From: Schmidtea nova
Taxonomy: Eukaryota
DNA length: 64,000 nucleotides
Assembly (NCBI GenBank): GCA_044892505.1
Contig: CM097883.1
Span: 151,652,001-151,716,000, forward strand
Direction: 5' to 3'
The notes under the pieces were generated by a model. The model worked only from the letters and a program-made list of their open reading frames with translations. It was not told the DNA's origin and ran no database searches. Made by a program: the position numbers and the translations under genes. This document shows positions 1,686 to 64,000 of the stretch, one piece after another; position 1 is the stretch's first letter; every line of letters begins with the position of its first letter.

Positions 1686-2309
1686 TCAATTTTGTTTATA
1701 AACCGTGACTCCTTTTTCGTTAAATATATCCGTTCGGGTACGTAAATCATCAGGACATTGTTGAGTAAAATCAAAGAATAAATATCCATGAGGAACTTTA
1801 GTAGCATCTTGAAATGAATTAATTAAGAATTTCCTATCATTAGGGTAAGCTTGTCTTGCTAGAAAATCAATAATTGTAGCATCTCTTGGGTTTTTGAATA
1901 TAACCAAGTATTGAACATTTAAATTACGAGTTCTGTGACTACCACCTTGATGAAATAAATTTTGAGTAATGAAAATTACAGTAACTCCTAAATGTCTACT
2001 AATTTTTGTGAATAAATTATTAAAATCTTTTTCTTTATTTGCTTCTTGGTACAAATCATCGATAATTATAACATCGCCTTGACGTAATCTAGATGACCAG
2101 TTTTTATCAAACCCTTTTATAATTGTCATTTTTAATTTACAGAATTGATCTTGAGTCAGTCCATGTTCTTCATCAGCTCCTCTATGCCAGTAAATTTTAT
2201 TGAATTTAGATTTAAACATTTTTGATTGCAACAATTTACATACAAATAATGTTTTTCCACTACCACTCGGACCCACTATTTGATAAACTGCATCATTTCT
2301 TAATTCCAT
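1686..2309 (-). CDS. Polinton DNA-packaging ATPase (A32/FtsK-HerA superfamily), 207 aa
   Basis: Walker A GPSGSGKT, Walker B IIIDDL, then ISRH, IFITQNLF and KNPRD motifs; uninterrupted ORF. Confidence 0.92.
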   Translation of the reverse strand: MELRNDAVYQIVGPSGSGKTLFVCKLLQSKMFKSKFNKIYWHRGADEEHGLTQDQFCKLKMTIIKGFDKNWSSRLRQGDVIIIDDLYQEANKEKDFNNLFTKISRHLGVTVIFITQNLFHQGGSHRTRNLNVQYLVIFKNPRDATIIDFLARQAYPNDRKFLINSFQDATKVPHGYLFFDFTQQCPDDLRTRTDIFNEKGVTVYKQN

Positions 2310-2380
2310 TTTTATTTAATTAATTAATTATTTTAATATTGTTTAATTTAATATTGTTTATATTTATTCAATTTATAAAA

Positions 2381-2863
2381 ATGATAAGTAATATTAATTA
2401 TAAGGGCAAGTGTTTAGTTCCAAACATGTTATTTCCTGTTGGGAAACACCAGCAAGTTATAGATAGGAGCGGGAAGTACCCTATTTTATTTTTCAGATCG
2501 GGAAAATGTCGCGTAATGGGTTGTAAGCAACCGTTAAAACCAGATGATTTGAAATATAAAATTTCCGATTTAAAAATTCAATCGATCACTATAACACTGG
2601 ATATGGGTAAATCCATAAATTTATACGAATTGCAAAATAAAACAGAGTGCTGGTACGAACCCGAAATATTTCCAGCTTTGAGATTAATAAATTATAACCC
2701 AATTTGTATTAATATTTTTTCAAGTGGAAAAGTTGTAATATTAGGAATTAAAACATTGGATTATTTTAATCAAGTAAATGAAATTAAAAATTATATTAAT
2801 TCATTAATCAATAACGAATTAATTGATGAAAAATATCTCGATTTATTATTTAATTTTGTTTAA
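2381..2863 (+). CDS. Divergent TATA-binding protein (TBP)-fold protein, 160 aa from ATG 2381
   Basis: Two TBP-like repeats: ISNINY...LFFRSGKCRVMGCK and IQSITI...YEPEIFPALRL...IFSSGKVVILGIK (canonical TBP: YEPELFPGL, IFxSGKVVLTGAK). Confidence 0.85.
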   Translation: MISNINYKGKCLVPNMLFPVGKHQQVIDRSGKYPILFFRSGKCRVMGCKQPLKPDDLKYKISDLKIQSITITLDMGKSINLYELQNKTECWYEPEIFPALRLINYNPICINIFSSGKVVILGIKTLDYFNQVNEIKNYINSLINNELIDEKYLDLLFNFV

Positions 2864-43300: not shown

Positions 43301-44047
43301 GAAAATGTGTTGTGCCGAGAGGCCGAGAATCCCGTCAGATCATTAGATCTTCGGGACAAACCTTATAGATTTTATCATTATGAGGGTTTATAATAATAAC
43401 ACAAGAATATAATCGTACCTTTTATTTCGATTCCAATTCGTGATTACAAGGTTTCACAAAATTACACTTGTCGCAAGTATGTTATCAGTTCGCAACTGAA
43501 AATGACACTTGGAAAAAAAGACTGACTTTGGCTGCTGCTTATATACTAATTTGTGTTGCCGGCCAGCCAATCAGAATCCAGCGTTCATGCAGATATTGTG
43601 TGCATTTTATTTTTAATGTTTTTCTTGGTGTACCTAATTCGATAAGTTGTTGTTTAATCATAATCGCCGCATCAGCACCTCACATGAAAATGTGTTGTGC
43701 CGAGAGGCCGAGAATCCCGTCAGATCATTAGATCTTCGGGACAAACCTTATAGATTTTATCATTATGAGGGTTTATAATAATAACACAAGAATATAATCG
43801 TACCTTTTATTTCGATTCCAATTCGTGATTACAAGGTTTCACAAAATTACACTTGTCGCAAGTATGTTATCAGTTCGCAACTGAAAATGACACTTGGAAA
43901 AAAAGACTGACTTTGGCTGCTGCTTATATACTAATTTGTGTTGCCGGCCAGCCAATCAGAATCCAGCGTTCATGCAGATATTGTGTGCATTTTATTTTTA
44001 ATGTTTTTCTTGGTGTACCTAATTCGATAAGTTGTTGTTTAATCATA
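43279..44047. repeat. Tandem duplication, 385-bp unit x2
   Basis: 43279-43663 repeated at 43664-44047; identical ORF starts at 43468 and 43853. Confidence 0.92.
43515..43571 (-). promoter_or_regulatory. Candidate Pol II core promoter (CCAAT element, TATATAAG, TCAGT initiator); duplicated at +385
   Basis: Minus strand GATTGG...TATATAAG...TCAGT; TATA-to-Inr spacing (~22 nt) is slightly short. Confidence 0.35.
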
Positions 44048-44281: not shown

Positions 44282-44932
44282 TTAGGTTATTGCTGATTTG
44301 CCTGGCCCAACAAATAATTCGCCTGTCATACTGTCGAAAGTATCATTGATAATCTTGAAATCATCCAAAGAAGCATGGGATCGACCAAATGTGTAGGCAT
44401 TTCCTTTGACATTAGTAAGAGTATCGAAATGATCAATTTCAGCAAAAAAGTCTTGATGAACCAATGGTTGACAAGCAGGATATTCAAATCGTCGACGCGA
44501 ATAAAATATCTGGTATTCGTGAAACCCTAAAAATTTGCCGAATTCCAAAATCGATTTCAAAGCATTTAATAGAAATGTTGTGCCGCAAATTTTTGGGATT
44601 ATTCTCCTTTGCGATACGAACAAACTGCTTTCACTCAACACATAAGAATCCATATGATCATCGGACATTTGTGAAATGATCTGGCAATCGACTTTGTCAA
44701 GTATTTCAACGACGGAGCTTTTAGGAATGGATCGCAAATCGCACTCATTGTCGTCAGAATTAAACCATATTTCTAATAACTTTTCACTGCCTTCAAAGAA
44801 ATATTCCTGTGGAATATGATTGGTTTGATTTTCAAAATCTTTCATAGTTTGGAAATGAATACAACTTAAAAAACCAAATTCAAAACAATGTTTTCCAGAT
44901 AAATCCATTCGAAACTCCCACAAAGAATTCAA
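44282..44932 (-). pseudogene. AMD1: S-adenosylmethionine decarboxylase proenzyme, N-terminal ~half; 3' end replaced by unrelated sequence
   Basis: FFEGSEKLLEIWF, YVLSESSLFVS (pyruvoyl self-cleavage site), KICGTT, FYSRRRF.YP..QP..H. Homology ends at NAYTFGR. Confidence 0.85.
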
Positions 44933-45260
44933 ATAAAGCCAAATTTAAATAGTTCCCCAAAAATTCCGAAAACAATAGCTCGAATAAACAACTCAAAATA
45001 ATAAATAAATTCCAGAATTAAATTCAATGAAATCCAATTATTATACTGCACACACGGACGCGAAAGACGACTCTCAGCAGTGCGCGCACATACGCGTAAT
45101 AACACGAGTAATCTAAACCTTGTGTTATCTCAAAAATCACCCGTGCACACAGACGCGATACAAAAACTTCAACATGAAATGCGAACGCAGACGCATACAA
45201 AAAACACAAATCCAAAACGCGCATACAGACGCGAATAAATAGCCAAAGTTTGCTACAAGC

Positions 45261-48193
45261 TAGTGTTGGGAATACTGGGATCCCGGTATTTGGAACAATA
45301 TATAGTTGCCGAAATACCGGTATTGAAAAAGTCGAATACCGGTATTTCGGTATTCGAAATAAGTTCACCATTCGAAATAATTTCACCAATATAATGTTTT
45401 TTATGGTTTTTTACTACAAAAAAATATTTGCATTATTATTTCTTAATGCGAAAAAACAGCAATCTAGTATTATATGAAAAGTTTAAAAGTTCAATTGTTT
45501 AAAAATATTCGTATTATTGTTTCTTAATGCGAAGAAACAGCAATCTAGTATTATATGAAAAGTTTAAAAGTTCAATTGTTTAAAAATATTCGTATTATTG
45601 TTTCTTAATGCAAAGAAACAGCAATCTAGTATTATATGAAAAATTTAAAAGTTTAGTTGTTCTTATAAATCGAAACAAAATCTATATTATAGATTATTTT
45701 TACGTACTACTATAATAGTTAAATTAAAATATTATTATATAAAATTCGAAACGGTAAGTAAAATATTTTCTTTTTAATCAGAATATGAATTATACATTTT
45801 ATTATCGTGTTTCGAACTTTTAGAAAATTTGTACTTTACACCGATATGAATATTCAAGATTTTGAGGAGCATTCCAAAGCAAATGATAAAAATTCACCAT
45901 GGTTTCATTTTCTAAGAGAAAAAGCAGGACAGTGTGCTAAATGCAAATGGTGTAAGAGAATAATAAAAACACATGGAGGTTCTACAAGCGGTCTTCATAC
46001 CCATTTAAAAACAATTCATGAAATCAATTTATTGAAAAGAGATGTAGGTAGCACCACTGTTTTAGATTCTTCAGAATTTGTACAGAAATCAAAACCTTCT
46101 GTAACTATAAACAACTTTTTTAAAAGTGATAAAATGGATGACTCATTGCCAGCTATTTTAGCTAGGATGACTGCGTGTGATGGTTTATCGTTCAACATTA
46201 TCTGCACTTCATATGATATCAGAAAAGGCTTAACAGCCAGAGGCTTTTCTAACATACCAAAAGATCACAAAACAATTCAAAAAATGGTTTTGAATTACAG
46301 TCGAAATATACGAGATCAAGTAATTAAAGAATTATCGTGCAGAATTGCTAATGGAAACAGATTTTCTCTTACTTTCGATGAATGGACATCGGTAAGAAAT
46401 AGACGTTACATAAATATTAATGTCCACTCTGACAAAGAATTTTGGAATCTAGGATTGATTCGTGCTTTTGGAACAATTCCAGCAGAAAAATGTGTTGAGC
46501 TTGTGAATGATAGGTTAGGTGATTTCGAGCTTTCGATGAACAATATTGTAGGTATTACCACTGATGGCGCTGCAGTTATGACAAAGGTTGGCAGGTTAAT
46601 TGAAGCACATCAGCAGCTATGTTTAGCGCATGGAATTCAGTTGGCTGTTATCAGCGTACTCTACAAAAAACCTATTAATGAGGCTAGTCTGCATAATGAA
46701 GAAGATGCCAACGTTACATCTGTTCCCACACCCAGATTTGAAAGACAGCAGAATTCCACAGATGACGACGAATTAATTGATGAAGATTAGGGAAATGAAA
46801 ATGGTTTACTTATTATATCCACTGAAAATGATGATGATAATTCTTCTTTTCTGGTACATCAGCAAATGTTACCATTAATTAAAAAAGTTCGTAAAGTGGT
46901 AAAAATATTTCGAACTTCGCCTACAAAAAATGACAAAATCCTACAAAAATATATAAAAGAAGAGTTCGGGAAAGAATTGTCTCTGGTTTTAGACTCAAGA
47001 ACACGATGGAATAGTTTAGTGTCTATGATAGAACGTTTCATCAAATTAAAAAATTGCATCAAAAAGAGTCTAATAGATTAAAAATCACCTATTTTGTTTT
47101 CAGATGGCGAGTTTGAAATGTCACATATCCTTTCAGTTTTACTTCCCATTAAGCTTACAGTTGAAGCAATCTGCCGACAGGATGCAACTTGGTTATCTGC
47201 AGATGCTGCTATTCAATTTATGATGAAATCAATAACTGACCATCCATGTTCATTAGGTTATGAATTGAAAGCAGCTTTAAAAGTACGTATTCTTCAAAGA
47301 CGAACAGAAATTTCAAGTGTTTTGCAATATTTACATGATGCAAACTGCAATGAAAATCCAAGCGATGATGAATCCGATAAAGATTATGAATTATTTCCGA
47401 TCATTACCAAAGCTGCAATCGCAAAAGTTATTGTTCTACAGATACAACGTTTGGGTATGCCCAACTTGCATTATGAAGCTGCACCTGTAGCTACAACATC
47501 TACTTCATCCAACGTTTCAAATTCAGATACAAATATATTATTCAATGTCGATGATGATGAAGATGATCAAAGAAATGAAATATCTCTGACTTTACAAGAA
47601 AAGTTGGAGAGGGCAATATCAAAAAAAATTTGCACCAGATTACCTGAAAGTGGAATCGACCAAAACAAAAATGATCTCACACGCTCAATAAAAAAAGAAA
47701 TGTCATTTTTTGAGACAAATGGCATAAGAGGCAAATACTTAACTTTATTATATAATTATTTGCTAAGTATTCAACCGACCAGTGTAGAATCGGAGAGAGC
47801 TTTTTCGGCAGCTGGCTTAATCTGCACCAGAATTCGGTCAAGGTTGAGAGATAATTCGCTCAACAATCTATGTTTTCTCAGGTCTTATATCAACAACCAA
47901 CTACAGAAAAAGTAGAATCTTAAAATTTTATGTCTTCATCCTTTTCTTATAAATAATATATATAACTAACATTTTACTGAATTTTGTTTTTACATTTATC
48001 TAATTTTTATTCTTTAAATAAATAAATTTAGTTTTTTTTAATTGGCAAACAATTTTTTAATTAAATTTATTTATTCATTCGTATTATTATAGGAAAAATA
48101 ATAATACCGGTATTAATACCGGGATCCCGGGATTACAAAAATCCAATACCGAAATACCGGTATTGGATTTTTGGTCCGGTATTCCCAACTCTA
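45261..48193 (+). mobile_element. Full-length hAT transposon (BED finger + DDE + hATC), copy 1
   Basis: TIRs TAGTGTTGGGAATAC / rc TAGAGTTGGGAATAC, exact 8-bp TSD CTACAAGC, subterminal ATACCG motifs, and three 81-bp tandem repeats at ~45430-45670. Confidence 0.95.
45807..47915 (+). pseudogene. hAT transposase with two in-frame stops (46788 TAG, 47079 TAA)
   Basis: BED finger CAKCKWC...L.THL..IH; FSLTFDEWTS; ITTDGAA; CLAH; DSRTRWNS; IQPTSVESERAFSAAG. All three ORFs are in one frame. Confidence 0.92.
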
Positions 48194-49429
48194 CTACAAG
48201 CTAACTTTGGCTGAAACAATAATAATAATAAAATAATAATAATATTAATAATAATTTATGATTTTAATTTTATTATTATGGTAATAAATTTATGATTACT
48301 ACAAGAATAAATTTATTTCACGGGGAAATTCATGGAAAATTTAAAGATTATCCAATAAACAATTCTGCAAAAGTTAAATATTAAAAAATTAAATGAATCA
48401 TTTTCATGGAAAATATTCACATGCAGAATATTGCAACTGTGCCTTGCGATTTTCATATTATTTTTTTTATTTCTCGCTCTTAGGTGAATCGAGATTTATT
48501 GATTTTTTAACGTTAAACAAATCCCAGTTGCCGAGATATCCCGTTGACATTTGCAGGCTCATAGACACGCACAGATGCTCACACAGATACACTCACAAAC
48601 ACATTACACTAGGTCATGAATTCAAGGGTATCATCAGTGATTATCGCATTCACCGACTGCAATATAAAGAATTTCATCCATTCCTAATTGACATCTTGCC
48701 TTGAAAATCAGGTCAACTAGTAATCATCATACAACAACAAACCGACAGGGACGAGAAAAATATCGCGTTACTCGTCTCGATCTAATGATATTCTGTATAT
48801 TTATTGCAAAATCTGTCGATATGTCTACCAGTTATTATCTGCCAATGTCTACCGGTGCGTGTGCATCGATCGAGCCAGCACACAACTCGATTTTTAAAAA
48901 TTCAATTTCTGTTCAGGAAAAACAAACACTCTAGCGCCTATCTATTCTCAGTTTCCAAATCTCAGCAGCCATGGTTTGATTATTTTTTGTTGTTGTAGAT
49001 ATTTTGTTATAATTTCCCTTTTCCCAACCTACTCGACAGGCACCCAAAACCAAAGAAAACACCACTCTCAAAGCTAAAGTCAAAAGCAAATCCCCTGTTT
49101 CAATTGACAATTCTGTGTTCACCTAAAATCCTCAGAAAACGCCCAATCATTTCGATGCCGATGAAGATTTCGGTTCGAGCGATGAATAAGTAAAGGCAAG
49201 TTAAAAGATTCGATTATAATGGTAGTTTATGCTTTTGTTTTTGTATTCCGTTCATTTAATTGTAATTTTTTTCAGAGGTACCAGCAGAGGAGATTAAGAT
49301 TGATAATAAAATTGAACATTTCTCACTATTATTTATATTTCTTACAGCAAAAGCCCTATGGCATTTGACTTTGGAGCAATTCGATGCTGCTATCATTTTC
49401 TTCGTAAGTTTTAGTCAAAATAATAGTAA

Positions 49430-49433
49430 TATC

Positions 49434-49481
<48 letters not shown>

Positions 49482-49520
49482 CATAATAATAACAATAATG
49501 ATAATGATGATGATAATAAT
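49430..49520. repeat. (AAT)n microsatellite
   Basis: Long AAT run grading into GAT; one unit longer in the duplicate copy. Confidence 0.95.
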
Positions 49521-50029
49521 ATTAGATGGGTCAATACGCCCATGCGGTGATTACAGACTCCTGAACTCAGTCACGAAAGTCGACAAATATCCTCTGCCCA
49601 GAATAAGCGATATCTTAGATCAATTCGGGGGAAGCAAAGTATTTTCAACGATCGATTTAGAAAAGCCATATCACCAAATCCCAATTGAAGCAAAGGACAT
49701 CCCGAAAACCGCAATAATTACCCCTTTTGGATTATACGAATACCTCAAAATGCCCTTTGGACTGAGGAACACATCACAAACACATCACAGTTTTTTCTCT
49801 AGGAAGCTCAATAAAACTGAACAAAGATATTCAACATTTGACCGAGAACTATTAGCTGCCTATTTAGCTATCAAAAACTTCAAACATCACCTGGACGGCA
49901 GCACATTCGAATTACTAACCGATCACAAGCCATTGGTATATATAAATACTATGAAAGATCCATCTAATAGACAATGGAGATGGATCCAGTTTTTAAACGA
50001 ATTTGTGGTAAAAATAATTCACATTAAAG
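49520..50029 (+). pseudogene. Gypsy RT N-terminus fused in frame to an RNase H fragment, cut by a hAT-type end at 50030
   Basis: RPCGDYRLLN, YPLP, FSTIDL, MPFGLRN joined to FFSRKL...YSTFDRELLA...TDHKPL; YxDD segment absent; CAGTGGTTTCCAACC begins at 50030. Confidence 0.88.
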
Positions 50030-50756
50030 CAGTGGTTTCCAACCCGGGAGGCGCCAAAACTTTTGAGTAAAAAAATGATTTTCATACTATAATATCTACA
50101 AATAGATAAAACTTCATGTGGTGGGAGTTTTATTTTGTCCAACGGGCATGTCGGAGAGTGTGGGATGAAGAAATGATTGGATTGTTGCAGATTGAATAAT
50201 TATCATCTAGTCTTGTTGGAACATTCAGAGAAGCATTGGAATCTGATCGCTTTGGAAACTATAAACTCTCTTATGATCTTTATAACAGTTGATTTCCAAA
50301 GAATCAATCGATGAAAATGACGAAAATACACTAATTAAGGAAACTGTGTAGATGGGCAGAATTGACGAAGTTTTTCAATGGCATGATTGACGAAACATTG
50401 ATTTCAAAGAATCTTAAACTCAGAACTTTAATGTTTGATAAAGATATTGATGAAAGAAAAAACTATTTCAGACTTAGACGAATTGTTGGAAAAATTTTAA
50501 ATATCAATGTCTAATTATGAATTATTGAAATTAGTTTATTTTTTTCATTGTTAAAAAAAAGTACTTTTGGTAAATTACCTTTCAGTTATTTTTTTATGGA
50601 AAATTTGTAAATTATGATTTATTTTTTTAATTTGGTTTGTAAAAGGTTGTTTAAATATTCAAAAGGAAATTTTGTAAATTAGTTTTTCAAAATAATAAAG
50701 ATTTGTGAATTAACATTTAATTATTATTTATTTTAAATTAATTAATTTAAATTCAT

Positions 50757-53393
50757 TTGATGGAAAATTCGATATATTTTCGGGACGAAAACTGGCCAGG
50801 CGAATTTAACCTTTTGTCTCGCTTGGCAGAGATGGATAAATCGTTTTTGGAAATTAGCGGTAAGTTGAATTTTATTGTTAATTATTTAAATATCTCAAAT
50901 GAAAATTTAAATAGTAATTTTTTACAAAGTAATTCGGGATATTTTGATAAAAGTAAAAATAAATTTGCTAATGTAGATTCTGATAATAATATGTTTTCAT
51001 TTGATAACTATGAAGGTGATAACTATGTTGATGATTTTAAAATTCCTTATCCTAAAGTGTATAATCTTTGCAATAAGCATAATAAAAATGAAACTTTTAA
51101 TAAAACCTTCACAGAGACTAATCTATATCGAAATTTCAAAAACTCTGAATATAAGAATACTACGATTAAGAAATTAAATGAACACAATGTAGAGAAAAAT
51201 TTATTAGAAAATCAAAGCTTTGGAGGTCGATCTGATTCAGCTTTAGATCGAATTGTTTCTGTTTATGGTTCTTTGGAGTCCCCGGGCAGGGACATTCATG
51301 ATCTGAAAATAACAATTTTTAATAAAAATCAAAAAAATAAATCTAATTTACTTGATATTGAAAATTCTAATTTACTTGAAATGAAATCGAGTAAATTAAA
51401 CAATCAGAATTTTTATAATAATTCTAATGTTTCACATCAATCTGGTGAAACTGGAAATAACTTTGAAAAAGTAAAATTATTTGATAAAGAAAATTCTAAT
51501 TTGAATATAAACTTTAAAAATCAAAATAAATCAAATTCAAAATCTCGTTCTGGTTCCACTTATAGAAATAGTTACTATAATAAAGATAGTTATTCTAAAT
51601 TTAATGATAACAAACTTGAAATGAAATTTCCTAGATTATTAACCAAAAGGGAAAAAAATTCATTAACACAATTATTCCCAAAATATCTTTCTCTTTTAAA
51701 GTTAAAGGAATCAGTCAGAAAATCTGATTTAATTAATAATGATTTGTTAAATATAAAAAAAGTGGATAATCCATTGGAGATTGCAGGTTTTGAGAGTTTC
51801 TTTTATAGAAACCATAACATATGTGTGTTTTTAAATTTTGAACCTCTTAAAGTAAAGGCAGTTAATAATAAAGCACAAATACCCACCGTGAAAACATTTT
51901 TGATTGGATCGAACATCTTGATGGTTAATAAAAAGCAGACTAAATTCATTCCTGCCCCATCAATTATTAAACGATTCTTATGTTCCTTTTCGTCAAAACT
52001 TGCAAGGACAGTCTCTATTAAAAATCCAAAGGCCAAGGAAATACAAATAAATAATATTCTTTTTGAAATGAGACAACGAAAAGAACTCCCTGATTACCTT
52101 ATAAACTCAGAAATAAAATATGTTGCGGGTAACTTCATGATGTTGGATCTTCTTAGCGGTTCTGAATCGGAAGATACCAGTCCATACCAAACTGCTACTG
52201 AACTGTCCCGGTCACAATTAGTTAACCTATTTAAGTCACACCCTGAACTTGAGGAGCTATGTTTTATTGAGAACACATATGCTAATCCCCAAAATATAAA
52301 TAAATTAATTATGAAATTAAAACTAGAAAATAAATTTCCAGAGCAGATCTCATTTGTAGAGGGTAAATTTATTATTAGAAATTCAACAGCAAATGGAGTC
52401 AAAGTGCACGCAGTTGGTACATCTGATATAATGTTCAACTTAGGTTTGCTGAACTTTGTTGAGATGTCAAAAGAGGACAGTGTGTTTAGTTCTCTTCTTG
52501 ATGAACAGCCCTCATCTCAAAAGCTGGTTGATATCATTTTTTATTTAAATTATTTAAAATTAAAAGATTCCCTAAAATATAACTCAGAACCCAGCTTTGA
52601 TGTATACGTACTGAACTATCTCAGAAATTGCTTCTTAATGCATTCGATCACGACTATTGAAGAGTCTTATAATTTTGACGTTGACACTATTTACATCTGG
52701 GGTTCAGAGATGGTCAGTAAGCTTAACAGTTCTTCATACTATTTCACTAGTTGTCAAGAAAGACTTTTGAAACTAAAACAAGTGAATCTCTCTGAGGAGA
52801 TTGATAAAATTCATGACATCATCTCTCCCAAAACCATTTTAGAAATAAACAATTTCCTGGCAGTTGTCGATAATTCTCTACCTAAAAAGACAGACCAGAT
52901 GAAGGCCTTAGTAAACATAAGCAATAAAATCAATGAATTTCAATCCGAGTTGAGTAATAGTGATGTTGTTAAAGCAAAACGACTCTTGTTCTTTGTAATT
53001 AGAGACAAGAAAAACTTTCTTAAAGCCAACAGAGTTAACTTCCGACTTCCTCGACATTGTAGAAAGATTTGTACTTCGAGTATGAGTGTCTACATTACAA
53101 AGCTTCTTGAGGTTCTGCTTCCGTTCACAACAACAAGTAATTTTCAACCTGATACCCTAAATCTAGAGACTATCAACGAATCCATCGATAACATAGAAGA
53201 CGAAAATCCTTCTCCTATAGTTGATGAAGATGACATAGATAATTTAAGAAAGAATCAAGTAAAGAAGCGTAAACTAGCATGTGATATCGATGAAATTCAG
53301 TCATCTGCAATAGAGAGCAAAAGTAACGAGGAACCTGAGCTTCCTTTGAAATCTTTTAAATATGGTAAGGGAACGGGAACCGGAAATAAATGA
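50757..53393 (+). CDS. Retroelement ORF1 / N-terminal region, 878 aa, no recognised domain
   Basis: Long open frame (first ATG at 50760) with an Asn/Ser/Lys-rich N-terminus and an acidic C-terminus with KKRK. Ends at a TGA in frame with ORF2. Confidence 0.75.
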   Translation: MMENSIYFRDENWPGEFNLLSRLAEMDKSFLEISGKLNFIVNYLNISNENLNSNFLQSNSGYFDKSKNKFANVDSDNNMFSFDNYEGDNYVDDFKIPYPKVYNLCNKHNKNETFNKTFTETNLYRNFKNSEYKNTTIKKLNEHNVEKNLLENQSFGGRSDSALDRIVSVYGSLESPGRDIHDLKITIFNKNQKNKSNLLDIENSNLLEMKSSKLNNQNFYNNSNVSHQSGETGNNFEKVKLFDKENSNLNINFKNQNKSNSKSRSGSTYRNSYYNKDSYSKFNDNKLEMKFPRLLTKREKNSLTQLFPKYLSLLKLKESVRKSDLINNDLLNIKKVDNPLEIAGFESFFYRNHNICVFLNFEPLKVKAVNNKAQIPTVKTFLIGSNILMVNKKQTKFIPAPSIIKRFLCSFSSKLARTVSIKNPKAKEIQINNILFEMRQRKELPDYLINSEIKYVAGNFMMLDLLSGSESEDTSPYQTATELSRSQLVNLFKSHPELEELCFIENTYANPQNINKLIMKLKLENKFPEQISFVEGKFIIRNSTANGVKVHAVGTSDIMFNLGLLNFVEMSKEDSVFSSLLDEQPSSQKLVDIIFYLNYLKLKDSLKYNSEPSFDVYVLNYLRNCFLMHSITTIEESYNFDVDTIYIWGSEMVSKLNSSSYYFTSCQERLLKLKQVNLSEEIDKIHDIISPKTILEINNFLAVVDNSLPKKTDQMKALVNISNKINEFQSELSNSDVVKAKRLLFFVIRDKKNFLKANRVNFRLPRHCRKICTSSMSVYITKLLEVLLPFTTTSNFQPDTLNLETINESIDNIEDENPSPIVDEDDIDNLRKNQVKKRKLACDIDEIQSSAIESKSNEEPELPLKSFKYGKGTGTGNK

Positions 53394-53399
53394 AGGTGC

Positions 53400-56300
53400 G
53401 TGCCTGCATCCGTCTCAACATCTGCTCTAATCTCTAAAGAGACTGATGCAGACAGCACAAATGATGACAATTCTAAACTTTCAACAACACTGCGTGACCC
53501 TAAAATATGGTTTACTGATGATGATATAGATAATTACCTTGAACGTCACATCAGTAACCCAACATTTGCACCGATAAAATGCTTTCAAATTGAAATCCTA
53601 CTTGCAAATCTGTCTGAAGACATTTTCCCAATTCCGGAAAGAGTTTTCTCATCACAAATAATATTATGCCCCTTAAACATTAACCAGGCTCACTGGATCT
53701 TGTTTGTCTACTGTAAGGCATCACTAACGTCTTACTTTATAGATCCAATTTTTGAAAATCGTCATTCAATGGGCAATAAAGCAACAGCACTTAAAACCAA
53801 CATCGCTTTTAATCGATTATTTAACTTGAAAGCTGCGGTATTTTTCCATCCACATAAGAACTTTATCTATCAGGACAATGACTATGACTGTGGTCCTTAC
53901 ATCTGTGCATATGCTATGATGATAAGTGGAGAATGGCAGAGATTTCCTGATAACTTTATTGAAACTATCCGCATAAATGCCCACCAATTTAAACTTACCT
54001 TGCAAAACATAGGCCCAAAAACATCGGGGGGTGGTGCACTTAAAATAAAAAGCTACAAACAATATAAAAATGCAAGAAAGCAAATTACAATTACCGATAA
54101 AGAGCAGATATTTTTTCTCAAGAGAAATTCTTGTGTGTCTTCCTTAATTGCTGAATGGTTTAAAGACTGTAAAAATATCACGGTCCTGTCACCTGAACTG
54201 ACACTAAATGTCATATCACAGAACGATACATTTATTCGGGAAACTGTCTCGTTCAAACAATTTCTTGGGATTGACCATGTCATCAGCGTTATCCCAAATG
54301 AAACAAACTGGTGTTTATATCTTTATTCTACATCACATGGAACCAGCCATATTTTTAATAACCAGGAAAAGCTCATTTCTGAACGACTATTTGGTATCGG
54401 CGAAAACATGACTGACTACTTGAATAAGTTTTTTCTTTCATCCAAAGCTGTATTCAACTCTCATCACAACATAGAGCTCTTCCCTATGGTCTGCGATGAT
54501 CCACATCTCTTTGCCTCTATCTTCATTGAATTACTAGAGAAATTAATATTTGACAAACAGTCTTCATTTGCAAGCATCCGCGAGTCTCTTAATTTATATA
54601 AAATCAAACAGACAAATGAGATCTCTCGGAATATAAACGTATTAAACTCTAAAATTAATGATGAAGTCATAACAAAATATTTTAATAATTTAAATTTATC
54701 AAGTGATTTTCTATTATTAAATGCGACAATGTGCACAGCGATTCTGGATGATTGCATGCATCATTTAAATGAATATTTAAACTATGAGCATTTAATTAAG
54801 GCGCAAGTTATCTTTGCAATTGTTGCACCCCATAAATATCGGGAAATTTTATTCATCCTCGATTACCATTCAGATCAATACTACATCATCAACCCAACGA
54901 CTATGTTGGGAAATGAAAAATATGTCAAGATTTGTAAGAGTCTTAGAAACAAAATTAATGAAATGAAAGAAACACCTGGGCGTGTCTTAAATCTTTGTGA
55001 ATGTCCTCATGAAATTCGCGGTTCGGGACTTTTAAGTAAGATACTATTGTGCGCTTTCATACATAACTTCGCCAAAGATCTGCCCCTTGTAAATCTAAAT
55101 TTGCGTGAGATAGGTAACACAGTCAGCGCTCTGCTTCCCATTGTCAAAGAAAGAAATGAAATTGGAAGCTGGAGTAAAATTAAATTAAGTAAAAACAACG
55201 TAGAAAGCTTGAGTATCAAACAACGAAAGCTTAAAGCTGGTCAACTCTTAATTAAATGGGCGAATTTAAACATAAATCAAATCATTGATGCCATCAATGA
55301 ACAATTCCCTGATCGGCTAAAATCAACAAATAAACCATACTTGGGAACCAGAACGAGACCTTCTAAAATAAATAAATATAAACTTATCGATAAATTCCTT
55401 ACTGACATGAAATCAACAGTCAGCAAAGTCATCAACAATTTTGACACATCTGCTAGACCAGAATATCAAAATATTATCAAAAACTTTACTCATAAATCTC
55501 CTTTGCAAAGACACTGGCAAAGTCTTTTTACTTTTTGTAAACAATCACAAAAACCACTTTTTCTAGAATCTCTATTAAGTGATGAAGTAATGTATGAACT
55601 CAGGAGAGCTGACAACACTAGTCCTGGTATTGATGGCATACAATATCGAGACTTGTTGCGTCTGGATCCAGAGGGTAATATACTTACTTTCTTGTTTAAT
55701 AAGATTATTTTAGAAAAATCCATACCTGACAGTTGGAAGACTTACAAAACTCTTCTAACTCCTAAACCTGACAAAGAAAATAAATATGAGGATGTTTCGT
55801 CTTGGCGACCAATCGCCTTGCTTTCCGTCATTTATAAGGTTTTTGCTTCTTGTCTAGCTAGACGCCTCACACACTGGATAGACTTGAATAATCTTTTACA
55901 TGTCGGTCAAAAAGGTGGTTCTCAACATGATGGATGTGCTGAACACAATTCGATTCTGTCTGCCGCGCTTGAACACTCTAAATATAGCAGAAATTGTCCT
56001 CTTTCAATTGCTTGGCTGGACATAAAAGATGCTTTTGGTAGTGTTCCACATGATTACATGTGGTCCCTACTTCGATATATTGGAGTAGGTGAGGAATTTA
56101 CATCAATTCTGCAGATGCTTTACTCCAACACGAGTACCTTTTATAGTTGTGGTCCTATTTTGACGCCAAACATTCCAATTAGACAGGGTGTTAAACAAGG
56201 ATGTCCATTATCAATGATTCTGTTTTCTTTGGCGATTAACCCTGTTCTTGAAGCTGTATCCAGATCAGACTGTCAACCTTTTATGATTGGAGAATCGCCT

Positions 56301-57998
56301 GTTAAGATTCTTGCATACGCAGATGATATTGCTCTTGTTGCAAAATCTGTTGAAGACCTGCAGAAAATAACTGAAATAGCTGTTGCAACTGCTGCTGAAA
56401 TCGGGTTCTTATATCGTCCTGAAAAATGTGGATATCTCCAACTACCAAAAGTCCACATTGACAGCGAAATCTCTATCAATGGCGTCAAAATTAAGAAGTT
56501 GCTGTCTAATGAATTCTATCAGTACCTCGGTGTGCCTGTAGGTGAGGAAACTGATCAGAGTCCATATGACATTCTTAAAAAAGTAGTCGCCGACACTAAA
56601 AAACTTGCTGACTCTGACTTACTTGGCTGGCAAAAGCTAAAGGCTTATAAGATATTTATTCATTCTCGGTTAATCTTTCCCTTTAGAACTCGAGAGATAA
56701 AAACCAGTGCTCTTTCTATATCTCGAGGCAACAGTAACCTTTCTGTCAACATTACCAGTCAATTAAGATATCATCTTCGGAAAATACTACTTTTGCCTCA
56801 TTATTCTGAAATAAGCTACTTTTACACTTCAACTGAAAACGGAGGAGCAAACTGTGTTGATTTGTTAGACGAATATCATACACAGACAATCACACACTTT
56901 TTCCGATTATTAACTGCCAAATGTGACTTTGCGAGAAAGATTAACATCGATTCTTTATCCTTTGTCACCGGTCCACGACTTGGGATATTGGAGCCCACAC
57001 TTCAAGAAAGTCTTGACTGGCTCAATGGCACAGAGTGTAAATCCCGCCATTCCGGGAGAAAAACTCGATTTCAAAGAGTCAGAACTTCAATTGCTTACTT
57101 TGAAAAAATCCATAAAATAAATATTACCTTCACTGTCACTAATCGCGAACCCTCACTATATATAACAACAGAAGCGCGAGGTACATGCATTTTGACTTCT
57201 GATTTACGTCATACGACATCTAAAGTCTTGCATATTGCACTCTGTAACTCTTATATGTCGAAATGGGAGAAGAGCTGCGTCTCAAGCATATTTGCTTCAG
57301 CAATCAAACTTTCACCGATTGTTAACAAGGCCATCTATCGTAGTGAATTGTCTGAGTTTGCTTGGAATTTTATTCATCGAGCTCGCACTAATACTCTCTC
57401 TATTCTTGCGAAGCCTTACAATCGAGATGAAAAAAGACTTTGTCGTCGGTGTCATCTTGCAGATGAGACGATGTCACACGCTATTCAATCGTGTAAAGTC
57501 CATCTTACTCTTGGTTCTGAGCGGCACGACGACTGTCTAAAGATTATTGCTACTCAACTTCAGAGAATTCCGAATTTGATTGTTGTTATTGATCATGCCT
57601 GTTCACTTGTTCCGAACTCTAAAGAACGAGTTGACTTGATGATAACAGACTTGTCAAAAAAGAAAATCTTTCTAATTGACTTGAAATGTCCGACAGACTC
57701 TATTGCTGGTTTTGAACAAGTTGACTTACTAAACTTGGCGAAATATGATTCGTTGAAAAACGAGATACAAGCTGTCAAGCCAGACTTTAGAGTTGAACTT
57801 GATACTTGCATTATTGGTGCTTTGGGATCTTTTCCTTCGAAAACTTCCGATATTCTTTTGAAAGTAGGAATTAAAAGAAATCAAATACAGGGATTGCTAA
57901 AACAATGTGCTATAAGTAATATAACACATTCTGCCAGACGGTGGTATTTCCACAAGAATGGCGTTTTACCAAACCTGGATAGTGATCACCTCTCATAA
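53400..57998 (+). CDS. Ulp1-like protease(s) + reverse transcriptase + CCHC + RLE endonuclease polyprotein, 1532 aa
   Basis: AHW/IDP/QDNDYDCG; SPGIDG, WRPIAL, LDIKDAFGSV, GVKQGCPLS, YADD, YQYLG; CRRC...ETMSHAIQSC; RHD, RVDL...IDLKCP. Confidence 0.95.
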   Translation: MPASVSTSALISKETDADSTNDDNSKLSTTLRDPKIWFTDDDIDNYLERHISNPTFAPIKCFQIEILLANLSEDIFPIPERVFSSQIILCPLNINQAHWILFVYCKASLTSYFIDPIFENRHSMGNKATALKTNIAFNRLFNLKAAVFFHPHKNFIYQDNDYDCGPYICAYAMMISGEWQRFPDNFIETIRINAHQFKLTLQNIGPKTSGGGALKIKSYKQYKNARKQITITDKEQIFFLKRNSCVSSLIAEWFKDCKNITVLSPELTLNVISQNDTFIRETVSFKQFLGIDHVISVIPNETNWCLYLYSTSHGTSHIFNNQEKLISERLFGIGENMTDYLNKFFLSSKAVFNSHHNIELFPMVCDDPHLFASIFIELLEKLIFDKQSSFASIRESLNLYKIKQTNEISRNINVLNSKINDEVITKYFNNLNLSSDFLLLNATMCTAILDDCMHHLNEYLNYEHLIKAQVIFAIVAPHKYREILFILDYHSDQYYIINPTTMLGNEKYVKICKSLRNKINEMKETPGRVLNLCECPHEIRGSGLLSKILLCAFIHNFAKDLPLVNLNLREIGNTVSALLPIVKERNEIGSWSKIKLSKNNVESLSIKQRKLKAGQLLIKWANLNINQIIDAINEQFPDRLKSTNKPYLGTRTRPSKINKYKLIDKFLTDMKSTVSKVINNFDTSARPEYQNIIKNFTHKSPLQRHWQSLFTFCKQSQKPLFLESLLSDEVMYELRRADNTSPGIDGIQYRDLLRLDPEGNILTFLFNKIILEKSIPDSWKTYKTLLTPKPDKENKYEDVSSWRPIALLSVIYKVFASCLARRLTHWIDLNNLLHVGQKGGSQHDGCAEHNSILSAALEHSKYSRNCPLSIAWLDIKDAFGSVPHDYMWSLLRYIGVGEEFTSILQMLYSNTSTFYSCGPILTPNIPIRQGVKQGCPLSMILFSLAINPVLEAVSRSDCQPFMIGESPVKILAYADDIALVAKSVEDLQKITEIAVATAAEIGFLYRPEKCGYLQLPKVHIDSEISINGVKIKKLLSNEFYQYLGVPVGEETDQSPYDILKKVVADTKKLADSDLLGWQKLKAYKIFIHSRLIFPFRTREIKTSALSISRGNSNLSVNITSQLRYHLRKILLLPHYSEISYFYTSTENGGANCVDLLDEYHTQTITHFFRLLTAKCDFARKINIDSLSFVTGPRLGILEPTLQESLDWLNGTECKSRHSGRKTRFQRVRTSIAYFEKIHKINITFTVTNREPSLYITTEARGTCILTSDLRHTTSKVLHIALCNSYMSKWEKSCVSSIFASAIKLSPIVNKAIYRSELSEFAWNFIHRARTNTLSILAKPYNRDEKRLCRRCHLADETMSHAIQSCKVHLTLGSERHDDCLKIIATQLQRIPNLIVVIDHACSLVPNSKERVDLMITDLSKKKIFLIDLKCPTDSIAGFEQVDLLNLAKYDSLKNEIQAVKPDFRVELDTCIIGALGSFPSKTSDILLKVGIKRNQIQGLLKQCAISNITHSARRWYFHKNGVLPNLDSDHLS

Positions 57999-58711
57999 GG
58001 GATTGAATGAGGGTATGTATTGTCAGATTCTCTTTAGCTATATTTTATTCAATGTTAAGTGTTATATGTATAGAAGTAGTATTTCTATTTTTTCTAGATA
58101 GTCAATCCCAAAGTAACATTGATAATTGCTTATATTAAATATATATATATTCTTGTAATTTTTAAAGAGATCAGATAAGTGGACAAATCGCAGACAAATA
58201 GAAATGATATTTTATAGATCTGCTTTGAGGTTCAAAATTGATGTCCGAAGAGAGAATTTCTGCAGCCCTGGTCAACTGAGGTTGGAAATGACTCAAACAT
58301 GCCAACTGTCATGTTCACCAAACTAAAGATCAACTGCAAAGCCAGATGGAAAATCTGAAGACAGATTCACACACCAATGCCGAGGACGAATTAGACTGTT
58401 GCAAATGACAATTGAGTTGCAATGATCCACAAACTTATAATATTATATGTGATTCTTTCCAACTCTTTGACAGTTGTAAACAGTCTGATTGGCGTGCTCC
58501 ATGTTGAGAACAGTCCTAATGTACAAATTTCAGATTTTATTTATAATAAAAGTATTTAGTAATCTAAACCTTGTGTTATCTCAAAAATCACCCGTGCACA
58601 CAGACGCGATACAAAAACTTCAACATGAAATGCGAACGCAGACGCATACAAAAAACACAAATCCAAAACGCGCATACAGACGCGAATAAATAGCCAAAGT
58701 TTGCTACAAGC

Positions 58712-61644
58712 TAGTGTTGGGAATACTGGGATCCCGGTATTTGGAACAATATATAGTTGCCGAAATACCGGTATTGAAAAAGTCGAATACCGGTATTTCG
58801 GTATTCGAAATAAGTTCACCATTCGAAATAATTTCACCAATATAATGTTTTTTATGGTTTTTTACTACAAAAAAATATTTGCATTATTATTTCTTAATGC
58901 GAAAAAACAGCAATCTAGTATTATATGAAAAGTTTAAAAGTTCAATTGTTTAAAAATATTCGTATTATTGTTTCTTAATGCGAAGAAACAGCAATCTAGT
59001 ATTATATGAAAAGTTTAAAAGTTCAATTGTTTAAAAATATTCGTATTATTGTTTCTTAATGCAAAGAAACAGCAATCTAGTATTATATGAAAAATTTAAA
59101 AGTTTAGTTGTTCTTATAAATCGAAACAAAATCTATATTATAGATTATTTTTACGTACTACTATAATAGTTAAATTAAAATATTATTATATAAAATTCGA
59201 AACGGTAAGTAAAATATTTTCTTTTTAATCAGAATATGAATTATACATTTTATTATCGTGTTTCGAACTTTTAGAAAATTTGTACTTTACACCGATATGA
59301 ATATTCAAGATTTTGAGGAGCATTCCAAAGCAAATGATAAAAATTCACCATGGTTTCATTTTCTAAGAGAAAAAGCAGGACAGTGTGCTAAATGCAAATG
59401 GTGTAAGAGAATAATAAAAACACATGGAGGTTCTACAAGCGGTCTTCATACCCATTTAAAAACAATTCATGAAATCAATTTATTGAAAAGAGATGTAGGT
59501 AGCACCACTGTTTTAGATTCTTCAGAATTTGTACAGAAATCAAAACCTTCTGTAACTATAAACAACTTTTTTAAAAGTGATAAAATGGATGACTCATTGC
59601 CAGCTATTTTAGCTAGGATGACTGCGTGTGATGGTTTATCGTTCAACATTATCTGCACTTCATATGATATCAGAAAAGGCTTAACAGCCAGAGGCTTTTC
59701 TAACATACCAAAAGATCACAAAACAATTCAAAAAATGGTTTTGAATTACAGTCGAAATATACGAGATCAAGTAATTAAAGAATTATCGTGCAGAATTGCT
59801 AATGGAAACAGATTTTCTCTTACTTTCGATGAATGGACATCGGTAAGAAATAGACGTTACATAAATATTAATGTCCACTCTGACAAAGAATTTTGGAATC
59901 TAGGATTGATTCGTGCTTTTGGAACAATTCCAGCAGAAAAATGTGTTGAGCTTGTGAATGATAGGTTAGGTGATTTCGAGCTTTCGATGAACAATATTGT
60001 AGGTATTACCACTGATGGCGCTGCAGTTATGACAAAGGTTGGCAGGTTAATTGAAGCACATCAGCAGCTATGTTTAGCGCATGGAATTCAGTTGGCTGTT
60101 ATCAGCGTACTCTACAAAAAACCTATTAATGAGGCTAGTCTGCATAATGAAGAAGATGCCAACGTTACATCTGTTCCCACACCCAGATTTGAAAGACAGC
60201 AGAATTCCACAGATGACGACGAATTAATTGATGAAGATTAGGGAAATGAAAATGGTTTACTTATTATATCCACTGAAAATGATGATGATAATTCTTCTTT
60301 TCTGGTACATCAGCAAATGTTACCATTAATTAAAAAAGTTCGTAAAGTGGTAAAAATATTTCGAACTTCGCCTACAAAAAATGACAAAATCCTACAAAAA
60401 TATATAAAAGAAGAGTTCGGGAAAGAATTGTCTCTGGTTTTAGACTCAAGAACACGATGGAATAGTTTAGTGTCTATGATAGAACGTTTCATCAAATTAA
60501 AAAATTGCATCAAAAAGAGTCTAATAGATTAAAAATCACCTATTTTGTTTTCAGATGGCGAGTTTGAAATGTCACATATCCTTTCAGTTTTACTTCCCAT
60601 TAAGCTTACAGTTGAAGCAATCTGCCGACAGGATGCAACTTGGTTATCTGCAGATGCTGCTATTCAATTTATGATGAAATCAATAACTGACCATCCATGT
60701 TCATTAGGTTATGAATTGAAAGCAGCTTTAAAAGTACGTATTCTTCAAAGACGAACAGAAATTTCAAGTGTTTTGCAATATTTACATGATGCAAACTGCA
60801 ATGAAAATCCAAGCGATGATGAATCCGATAAAGATTATGAATTATTTCCGATCATTACCAAAGCTGCAATCGCAAAAGTTATTGTTCTACAGATACAACG
60901 TTTGGGTATGCCCAACTTGCATTATGAAGCTGCACCTGTAGCTACAACATCTACTTCATCCAACGTTTCAAATTCAGATACAAATATATTATTCAATGTC
61001 GATGATGATGAAGATGATCAAAGAAATGAAATATCTCTGACTTTACAAGAAAAGTTGGAGAGGGCAATATCAAAAAAAATTTGCACCAGATTACCTGAAA
61101 GTGGAATCGACCAAAACAAAAATGATCTCACACGCTCAATAAAAAAAGAAATGTCATTTTTTGAGACAAATGGCATAAGAGGCAAATACTTAACTTTATT
61201 ATATAATTATTTGCTAAGTATTCAACCGACCAGTGTAGAATCGGAGAGAGCTTTTTCGGCAGCTGGCTTAATCTGCACCAGAATTCGGTCAAGGTTGAGA
61301 GATAATTCGCTCAACAATCTATGTTTTCTCAGGTCTTATATCAACAACCAACTACAGAAAAAGTAGAATCTTAAAATTTTATGTCTTCATCCTTTTCTTA
61401 TAAATAATATATATAACTAACATTTTACTGAATTTTGTTTTTACATTTATCTAATTTTTATTCTTTAAATAAATAAATTTAGTTTTTTTTAATTGCCAAA
61501 CAATTTTTTAATTAAATTTATTTATTCATTCGTATTATTATAGGAAAAATAATAATACCGGTATTAATACCGGGATCCCGGGATTACAAAAATCCAATAC
61601 CGAAATACCGGTATTGGATTTTTGGTCCGGTATTCCCAACTCTA
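58712..61644 (+). mobile_element. hAT transposon, copy 2 (same TSD CTACAAGC, same two stops)
   Basis: Identical TIRs, TSD and ORFs 59258-61366. Confidence 0.95.
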
Positions 61645-62884
61645 CTACAAGCTAACTTTGGCTGAAACAATAATAATAATAAAATAATAATAATATTAAT
61701 AATAATTTATGATTTTAATTTTATTATTATGGTAATAAATTTATGATTACTACAAGAATAAATTTATTTCACGGGGAAATTCATGGAAAATTTAAAGATT
61801 ATCCAATAAACAATTCTGCAAAAGTTAAATATTAAAAAATTAAATGAATCATTTTCATGGAAAATATTCACATGCAGAATATTGCAACTGTGCCTTGCGA
61901 TTTTCATATTATTTTTTTTATTTCTCGCTCTTAGGTGAATCGAGATTTATTGATTTTTTAACGTTAAACAAATCCCAGTTGCCGAGATATCCCGTTGACA
62001 TTTGCAGGCTCATAGACACGCACAGATGCTCACACAGATACACTCACAAACACATTACACTAGGTCATGAATTCAAGGGTATCATCAGTGATTATCGCAT
62101 TCACCGACTGCAATATAAAGAATTTCATCCATTCCTAATTGACATCTTGCCTTGAAAATCAGGTCAACTAGTAATCATCATACAACAACAAACCGACAGG
62201 GACGAGAAAAATATCGCGTTACTCGTCTCGATCTAATGATATTCTGTATATTTATTGCAAAATCTGTCGATATGTCTACCAGTTATTATCTGCCAATGTC
62301 TACCGGTGCGTGTGCATCGATCGAGCCAGCACACAACTCGATTTTTAAAAATTCAATTTCTGTTCAGGAAAAACAAACACTCTAGCGCCTATCTATTCTC
62401 AGTTTCCAAATCTCAGCAGCCATGGTTTGATTATTTTTTGTTGTTGTAGATATTTTGTTATAATTTCCCTTTTCCCAACCTACTCGACAGGCACCCAAAA
62501 CCAAAGAAAACACCACTCTCAAAGCTAAAGTCAAAAGCAAATCCCCTGTTTCAATTGACAATTCTGTGTTCACCTAAAATCCTCAGAAAACGCCCAATCA
62601 TTTCGATGCCGATGAAGATTTCGGTTCGAGCGATGAATAAGTAAAGGCAAGTTAAAAGATTCGATTATAATGGTAGTTTATGCTTTTGTTTTTGTATTCC
62701 GTTCATTTAATTGTAATTTTTTTCAGAGGTACCAGCAGAGGAGATTAAGATTGATAATAAAATTGAACATTTCTCACTATTATTTATATTTCTTACAGCA
62801 AAAGCCCTATGGCATTTGACTTTGGAGCAATTCGATGCTGCTATCATTTTCTTCGTAAGTTTTAGTCAAAATAATAGTAATATC

Positions 62885-62935
<51 letters not shown>

Positions 62936-62973
62936 CATAATAATAACAATAATGATAATGATGATGATAATAA

Positions 62974-63483
62974 TATTAGATGGGTCAATACGCCCATGCG
63001 GTGATTACAGACTCCTGAACTCAGTCACGAAAGTCGACAAATATCCTCTGCCCAGAATAAGCGATATCTTAGATCAATTCGGGGGAAGCAAAGTATTTTC
63101 AACGATCGATTTAGAAAAGCCATATCACCAAATCCCAATTGAAGCAAAGGACATCCCGAAAACCGCAATAATTACCCCTTTTGGATTATACGAATACCTC
63201 AAAATGCCCTTTGGACTGAGGAACACATCACAAACACATCACAGTTTTTTCTCTAGGAAGCTCAATAAAACTGAACAAAGATATTCAACATTTGACCGAG
63301 AACTATTAGCTGCCTATTTAGCTATCAAAAACTTCAAACATCACCTGGACGGCAGCACATTCGAATTACTAACCGATCACAAGCCATTGGTATATATAAA
63401 TACTATGAAAGATCCATCTAATAGACAATGGAGATGGATCCAGTTTTTAAACGAATTTGTGGTAAAAATAATTCACATTAAAG
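62974..63483 (+). pseudogene. Gypsy RT/RNase H fusion fragment, copy 2
   Basis: Identical translation to the 49498-50070 ORF. Confidence 0.88.
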
Positions 63484-64000
63484 CAGTGGTTTCCAACCCG
63501 GGAGGCGCCAAAACTTTTGAGTAAAAAAATGATTTTCATACTATAATATCTACAAATAGATAAAACTTCATGTGGTGGGAGTTTTATTTTGTCCAACGGG
63601 CATGTCGGAGAGTGTGGGATGAAGAAATGATTGGATTGTTGCAGATTGAATAATTATCATCTAGTCTTGTTGGAACATTCAGAGAAGCATTGGAATCTGA
63701 TCGCTTTGGAAACTATAAACTCTCTTATGATCTTTATAACAGTTGATTTCCAAAGAATCAATCGATGAAAATGACGAAAATACACTAATTAAGGAAACTG
63801 TGTAGATGGGCAGAATTGACGAAGTTTTTCAATGGCATGATTGACGAAACATTGATTTCAAAGAATCTTAAACTCAGAACTTTAATGTTTGATAAAGATA
63901 TTGATGAAAGAAAAAACTATTTCAGACTTAGACGAATTGTTGGAAAAATTTTAAATATCAATGTCTAATTATGAATTATTGAAATTAGTTTATTTTTTTC

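Follow-up and report, generated by a model that had tools for sequence, protein, structure and literature searches.

Some retrotransposons without long terminal repeats (non-LTR elements) carry a Ulp1-like protease upstream of their reverse transcriptase (RT), and the role of this protease has been open since NeSL-1. The question is raised anew by a retrotransposon in a 64,000-nucleotide stretch of the Schmidtea nova genome (NCBI GenBank assembly GCA_044892505.1, contig CM097883.1, positions 151,652,001 to 151,716,000 of the forward strand; hereafter the window, with coordinates counted from its first letter), the DNA of which is AT-rich, repeat-rich, and eukaryotic. A reading made from these letters (the original prediction) had placed one active and two degenerate Ulp1/SENP-like domains in tandem before the RT of this element, and had suggested that the degenerate copies might bind small ubiquitin-like modifier (SUMO) or ubiquitin conjugates, or help to process a long polyprotein. 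What would an active protease followed by two dead copies of itself do for a retrotransposon? Here, we find that the tandem layout holds, with confident models of both degenerate domains whose best structural matches are Ulp1/SENP proteases. We consider it fairly probable that domain 1 is a leader protease which cuts itself free at a Gly-Gly motif, while the dead domains stay on the RT protein.

The three Ulp1-like domains of ORF2

The domains are encoded by the second open reading frame (ORF2; 53394..57998, on the plus strand like all features of the element), which runs uninterrupted for 1534 amino acids in the order C48 protease, Gly-Gly motif, pseudo-C48, pseudo-C48, RT, CCHC knuckle, and restriction-like endonuclease (RLE). 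Residue 1 is taken as the first codon after the TGA that closes ORF1 (53394). Relatives were collected in steps, 2 at first, then 13, and then 92 more via the RT part, giving 107 proteins in total. Domain 1 (53502..53984; residues 37 to 197) matched the Pfam family Peptidase_C48 (PF02902) with an E value of 1.7e-6 and 28.5 bits, above the curated cut-off of 20.7. Its motifs are W39-F-T-D-D-D-I, H100-W101, D117-P118, and Q160-x5-C166, with the codons of H100, D117, Q160, and C166 at 53691, 53742, 53871, and 53889; C166 is the residue earlier numbered Cys164. W39, H100, W101, D117, Q160, and C166 were invariant in 8/8 full-length three-domain proteins. Judged by its sequence, domain 1 thus has the His-Asp-Cys triad, the oxyanion Gln, and the two tryptophans of the C48 family and carries the residues of an active C48 protease, and the earlier claim of a complete triad, all the motifs of which lie in ORF2, was borne out.

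The two following blocks, domain 2 (54087..54605) and domain 3 (54606..55148), gave no Pfam C48 match at E values up to 10; the hits that they did give, DUF447_N, PatG_D, Spc25, and SPAN-X, were below the cut-off and were rejected. Pairwise comparison of the blocks gave BLOSUM z values of 3.9, 0.5, and 1.4, a weak similarity on sequence alone, and profile-profile comparison among them gave scores of 25.9, 25.0, and 32.3, against 13.7 to 21.7 for the best decoys. Given the absent C48 score and the weak pairwise similarity, blocks 2 and 3 were folded with AlphaFold from alignments of the relatives (13 rows each). The resulting models were confident, with a predicted local distance difference test (pLDDT) score of 86.8 and a predicted template modeling (pTM) score of 0.85 for block 2, and 90.0 and 0.87 for block 3, and both displayed the same sequence of helices and strands. 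Among 48,161 chains, the best structural match of block 2 was yeast Ulp1 (1euv; Z 13.1, root mean square deviation 3.0, 156 residues aligned), and those of block 3 were SENP5 (9gnn; Z 15.8) and Ulp1 (1euv; Z 15.6), with a deviation of 3.3 and 167/172 residues aligned. The top 23 rows for block 2 and the top 25 for block 3 were Ulp1/SENP/NEDP1, bacterial effector, or viral proteases, all of which we take to belong to the CE clan, and the first clearly unrelated row appeared at a Z of about 5 and 4, respectively. Foldseek likewise led from block 2 to NEDP1 (E 7.9e-6) and from block 3 to Ulp1 (E 8.0e-6), and a joint alignment of 34 domains was collinear. ESM-Atlas features pointed to C48-bearing clusters (0.93 and 0.94) and serve as a lead only, as the family occurs in just 17% of the cluster members. 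As modeled, domains 2 and 3 adopt a Ulp1-like fold over the full domain, without the triad. The structure prediction thus found a C48-type fold in both blocks, and the arrangement of one active and two degenerate domains before the RT holds. The three blocks do lie in ORF2, but the third extends to about 55148, beyond the end at 55090 first given for it.

Neither block has the pair of catalytic His and Cys of an active C48 enzyme. In domain 2, the catalytic His was found in 0/13 rows. In domain 3 of this copy, Ser548 stands for the Cys, Asn500 for the Asp, Arg542 for the Gln, and Arg483 for the His. Across relatives, the Cys position is Ser in 10/11 rows and Ser or Asn in 11/11, the Asp position is mostly Asn, and the His is kept in 6/11 rows. 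The claim that both blocks lack the His and Cys was consequently correct for this copy, and for the His of domain 2 throughout, but does not extend to the domain 3 His of all relatives. Cys367 of domain 2 was considered as a shifted nucleophile and rejected; it lies near the former active site, yet it is unconserved and has no His partner.

Loss of catalysis has gone with different degrees of conservation. Mean pairwise identity, 53.8% in the RT, came to 35.8% in domain 3, 34.6% in domain 1, 25.3% in domain 2, and 19.9% in the first linker, and the match between domains 3 and 1 suggests a constraint as strong as that on the active enzyme. In domain 3, 15/172 residues were invariant, among them S544, G545, S548, L551, and C553 at the loop and helix of the former active site, which retains a conserved S-G-L-x-S motif, compared with 2/150 in domain 2, a domain missing from two relatives. 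The sequences also bear on possible ligands. In Ulp1-type enzymes, two tryptophans clamp the Gly-Gly tail of the modifier. Domain 3 has Trp at neither position in 13 rows (12 of them with a residue near the first position), whereas in domain 2, the N-terminal W-x-x-D motif is missing and just the second Trp is kept, in 9/13 rows. Neither domain therefore has the Trp pair that clamps Gly-Gly in SUMO and ubiquitin binding, and with these tryptophans lost, canonical conjugate binding is not favored; noncanonical binding may be compatible with the loss.

The Gly-Gly motif and the ORF1/ORF2 junction

Behind domain 1 lies a Gly-Gly-Gly (residues 212 to 214; 54027..54035). Gly-Gly was found 43 to 49 residues after the catalytic Cys in 13/15 sequence clusters, the other two having G-S-G or G-T-G, while shuffles predicted it in 0.16 clusters for a 12-residue window. 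This window was chosen after the motif had been seen and the clusters are related, so the figure describes conservation, not a P value, and shows only that the motif is not compositional. G213 is the sole invariant residue in the 48-residue first linker. In 9 of the 13 Gly-Gly clusters, this is the only Gly-Gly run of the N-terminal region, and no conserved glycine motif was present after domain 2, or after domain 3 before the RT, in the alignments. The motif is also retained in P0023, a distant relative in which the two parts are fused and where a cut would, from the sequence, most obviously be needed.

Ulp1-type enzymes favor cleavage behind Gly-Gly, and self-release at such a site is known from several viral proteases of the papain type. 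On the strength of its conservation and fixed spacing, the region around Gly213 is a probable self-cleavage site of domain 1. The suggestion of polyprotein processing in the original prediction accordingly finds specific support for the active domain 1, not for the dead domains. A complex prediction of domain 1 with a Gly-Gly peptide, run with no alignments, scored 0.04 and 0.02, where the mark was 0.34, and counts neither way.

How the protease is made depends on the junction upstream. ORF1 (50760..53393; 877 amino acids from the first ATG) is in the same frame as ORF2 and closes with the TGA at 53391..53393, and a GTG follows at 53400. The first in-frame ATG of ORF2 encodes Met126, beyond the catalytic His100, so an intact protease would require that ribosomes either read through the TGA or start at GTG 53400. 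An ATG overlapping the TGA was rejected as the ORF2 start; it lies in the -1 frame, which is open for just 15 codons. Immediately 3' of the TGA is a stem-loop (53396..53458), a candidate recoding signal with its core stem from +11. The 80 nucleotides after the TGA had the lowest minimum free energy (-25.0 kcal/mol) of 180 windows across the element, with a z of -3.3, and their stability was reached by 1/200 shuffles. The residues coded by the hairpin arms are conserved within an otherwise variable leader, and they covary, being Ser/Asp in four elements (this copy included), Pro/Gly in two sister elements, and Thr/Gly in one. The change from Ser/Asp to Pro/Gly would fit one compensatory U-A to C-G change.

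In 6/8 clade relatives with a complete N terminus, the protein had been called from a codon in register with GTG 53400 (M-P-A). Four of the contigs behind these M-P-A starts are 7.0 to 8.3 kb long, and starts at this register despite such long contigs suggest that a stop lies just upstream there too. In 3/4 runs, the match of related contigs sets in at 53384, seven bases upstream of the TGA, with differing letters before that point. A contig that reads across the TGA differs at 6 positions; the 4 of these that were displayed lie away from the stop. In all four runs, summed contig depth in the bin 53304-53620 was several times that of the preceding bin, because related copies match there.

Three readings of the junction were weighed. 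Hairpin-helped readthrough of the in-frame TGA is favored by where the core stem lies (+11) and by the fused relative P0023, and reinitiation or non-AUG initiation at the +7 codon by the conserved start-like codon and the nonleaky base after the stop. We rate these two, on present sequence grounds, as about equal, each having somewhat less than an even chance of being correct, and the cleavage model holds under both. That the TGA is a nonsense change specific to this copy appears unlikely.

Relatives, history, and comparison with known systems

The domain profiles matched 23 of the 107 collected proteins, and a joint three-domain profile found no further significant dead domain in the other 84. 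In an RT tree of 33 hand-picked rows from the 107 (13 of interest and 20 others), nine three-domain proteins and P0011 formed one clade with a support of 100/98. P0011 and P0010 (a fragment) lack domain 2 but keep the other two, and since P0011 is nested within the three-domain clade, domain 2 was lost at least once. Outside the clade, P0019 and P0023 each combine domain 1 with just one dead copy. That of P0019 is like domain 2 in its first half and like domain 3 in its catalytic helix; that of P0023 is marginal (independent E value [iE] 0.047), and the long branch of this protein leaves its placement unsure. At least one dead copy was present in all 12 RT-bearing, domain 1-bearing proteins of the tree, and domains 2 and 3 were closer to each other than either was to domain 1. 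The simplest history compatible with these sequences would be one duplication with loss of catalysis, after which the dead copy was duplicated in the three-domain clade.

Some further observations concern single relatives and wider searches. P0023 encodes, in a single frame of 2421 amino acids, an ORF1-sized leader of about 1100 residues, C48, Gly-Gly, one dead domain, and the RT. In P0024, an RLE element without an active protease, residues 296 to 411 look like a dead C48 domain by eye (iE 0.9, barely above reversed controls). Two scans of metagenome contigs for related loci returned 313 and 90 pattern matches, none of which was confirmed, and none of 7172 candidates was a shorter protein resembling ORF2 residues 25 to 600.

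The rest of ORF2 places the element. The RT core with its YADD motif (55764..56534; Pfam RVT_1, E 2.5e-24) is followed by what we take to be a CCHC knuckle (C1350, C1353, H1362, C1367) and a restriction-like endonuclease motif (R-V-D1414 ... D1429-x-K1431), together at 57441..57686; both motifs were read from the sequence and are invariant in 7/7 alignment rows. A PD-(D/E)xK-like endonuclease and a CCHC knuckle behind the RT are the marks of RLE-type elements (R2 group), and this order in ORF2 identifies the element as an intact non-LTR retrotransposon of the RLE type, with kinship to the NeSL group. It departs from the single ORF of the R2 group, as described in the available part of Mukha et al. 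(PMC3636483), by having two ORFs in one frame with a TGA between them. ORF1 had no significant Pfam domain (the best was PIG-X, E 0.22) and no BLAST match at E values up to 1 among the 107 collected proteins, P0023 included. Counterparts of ORF1 in related copies end with a lysine-rich tail in the same frame, at loose contig ends. The element may have its 3' end at a short (TA)n run (58140-58160), about 150 bases past the ORF2 stop. Insertion into a specific multicopy target, such as spliced leader, U2, 28S, or tRNA sequences, is a mark of the NeSL clade. No ribosomal, transfer, or small nuclear RNA target near the element was detected by Rfam at the gathering score in the window, which holds this one copy.

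A Ulp1-like protease upstream of the RT, another mark of the NeSL clade, is shared with the nematode NeSL families and Utopia-1_TSP, for each of which the available part of Kojima and Jurka (PMC4640811) describes one Ulp1-like domain. Compared with these, the present element adds two dead copies, the Gly-Gly motif, and two in-frame ORFs; Utopia is described there as one protein with N-terminal zinc fingers, and the published NeSL/Utopia alignment, in the part available, stops short of the Gly-Gly position. The dead copies of our element stand at the RT N terminus, where other elements of the group carry zinc fingers. R5/LIN elements of planarians are placed in the NeSL clade by the same source, within its available part. 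Our RT tree has no row named NeSL, R5, or LIN, and in it the clade lies apart from named arthropod, nematode, and turtle matches. R5 has reportedly been described by Burke et al. in 2003 as having two ORFs. The element may belong to the R5/LIN lineage and is perhaps already cataloged in Repbase, possibly with its protease annotated. A literature search, which did not extend to the original NeSL-1 and R5 papers or to Repbase, found no tandem or dead Ulp1 domains, Gly-Gly site, or readthrough for these elements. Within the literature searched, the three-domain layout is new and defines a clade within a known kind of element.

All three domains share the fold of Ulp1/SENP/NEDP1 (PF02902, clan CE), and domain 1 also shares the triad order His-Asp-Cys and the oxyanion Gln; domains 2 and 3 differ in lacking the triad, and domain 1 in that its proposed substrate is its own polyprotein. 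Parallels for such an arrangement come from viruses. The proteases of African swine fever virus (pS273R) and adenovirus cleave behind Gly-Gly, potyvirus HC-Pro and the leader proteases of closteroviruses do so at a Gly-Gly that forms their own C terminus, and arteriviruses and coronaviruses have tandem papain-like domains, one of them inactive. pS273R and the adenovirus protease were themselves among the structural matches of the dead domains (Z 6.8 to 9.6). By analogy, the element most likely works like viral leader proteases, with self-release at Gly-Gly beside tandem, dead copies. It differs from them in that its dead copies would come after the cut site and stay attached to a retrotransposon RT. 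Captured Ulp1 domains are also known from the DNA transposons Ginger1 and Mutator, for which the available part of Bao et al. (PMC2836005) suggests a role in SUMO or ubiquitin pathways; there, the domain is a single C-terminal one on the transposase, and that part of the text mentions no tandem dead copies.

A leader-protease model, its rivals, and the setting of the element

In the model that we prefer, domain 1 would act as a leader protease, cutting its own polyprotein at GG|G. The mature replication protein would then be D2-D3-RT-endonuclease, and the protease would be released, together with the ORF1 protein if the TGA is read through. The dead domains would derive from duplication of the protease domain, the first copy as in P0019- or P0023-like elements and the second within the clade, and would be kept as noncatalytic binding or structural modules; such a role is preferred on the reasoning that cleavage would leave them at the N terminus of the RT protein. 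Domain 3 would be essential, its former active-site loop holding a ligand, probably one other than a canonical Gly-Gly tail, and domain 2 would be dispensable. A bolder version, in which expression of the clade follows the pattern of retroviruses or RNA viruses, with an ORF1-protease-RT polyprotein from hairpin-stimulated readthrough, a SUMO-type leader protease that matures it at Gly-Gly, and a pair of dead folds that have come to bind something new (RNA, target DNA, or a host factor) at the conserved domain 3 loop, is offered tentatively, as we doubt that all of it will hold.

Several points tell against the preferred model. AlphaFold models of diverged domains can drift to a known fold. Two of the 15 clusters have G-S-G or G-T-G instead of Gly-Gly, and flexible linkers often contain runs of glycine. 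As for the junction, the four runs represent at most two samples of a single study, from which the window itself may come, and the stops and hairpins of relatives are deduced from where their proteins start and from codon logic. The change to Pro/Gly counts as a single evolutionary event, and with Thr/Gly one pair stays mismatched. The TGA is followed by A, which is not a typical leaky context, and the hairpin ranks only third by z among the 180 windows.

Domain 1 might instead be a host-directed deSUMOylase or deubiquitinase, with the dead domains as SUMO or ubiquitin traps that counter SUMO-dependent silencing, as the original prediction had proposed. The nearest folds are indeed SUMO and NEDD8 proteases, and the Cys-to-Ser replacement in 10/11 domain 3 rows, with His kept in 6/11, resembles the SENP1 C603S trap, whose complex with SUMO-1 (2g4d) was among the matches. 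Ulp1 and OTU domains moreover recur in DNA transposons, for which a SUMO or ubiquitin role has been proposed in the available part of PMC2836005. Fold likeness at 8 to 16% identity to SENPs is nevertheless uninformative on the ligand, domain 3 has no clamp Trp, domain 2 has no W-x-x-D and a second Trp in only 9/13 rows, and the fixed Gly-Gly behind domain 1 is left unexplained. We judge this explanation unlikely; it is compatible with self-cleavage, since domain 1, once freed, might target host conjugates as well.

If, on the other hand, the Gly-Gly-Gly were a flexible hinge, the protein would remain uncut, and the dead domains could be allosteric partners or substrate platforms for domain 1. 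Pseudo-enzymes often regulate their active paralogue, the order D1-(D2)-D3 is fixed, and the G-S-G and G-T-G of 2/15 clusters would suit a hinge. A hinge does not need a fixed distance from the Cys, yet this distance is kept in a linker of otherwise variable length and 19.9% identity, and no such conserved glycine motif lies between domains 2 and 3 or between domain 3 and the RT, making this explanation improbable. Least credible, to the point that we give it hardly any weight, is that tandem duplications left domains 2 and 3 behind as decaying remnants, serving as spacing only. In favor of it, domain 2 has been lost in P0010 and P0011 and has 2/150 residues invariant. Domain 3, however, is conserved like the active domain, with several of its 15/172 invariant residues at the former active-site loop, every RT-bearing domain 1 protein in the tree (12/12) has at least one dead copy, and both dead domains are still predicted to fold with high confidence.

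A 5.4-kb segment lies on both sides of the element (45107-50546 and 58558-64000; 99.93% identity, offset 13451), the second copy reaching the window end. Besides 81-bp tandem repeats, it contains ORFs read as a hAT-like transposase, which is split, and as a fragment of a Gypsy-like RT; the segment is either a recent tandem duplication or an assembly artifact. Exact or near-exact tandem duplications of 384 bases (43279-44047) and 252 bases (42244-42745) were also seen. By eye, the ORF at 20221-20802 (minus strand) is protein phosphatase 1-like and that at 44282-44944 (minus strand) is S-adenosylmethionine decarboxylase-like. The ORF at 1686-2315 (minus strand) is presumably a P-loop ATPase resembling Polinton/virus packaging ATPases, and the adjoining one at 2324-2863 (plus strand) presumably a TATA-binding-protein-like protein, both again by eye.

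For this family of elements, the conserved Gly-Gly names a specific bond and thereby makes the role of the protease testable with two point mutants. As the dead copies are invisible to Pfam, about 350 residues of such proteins would be annotated as unknown. N termini of R2 proteins are hard to assign, according to the available part of PMC13580325; if ORF2 is processed as proposed, the N terminus of the working RT protein would be predictable, which is relevant to RLE-based gene-insertion tools. The lineage shows a pseudo-enzyme arising, duplicating, and being partly lost, all within one transposon lineage.

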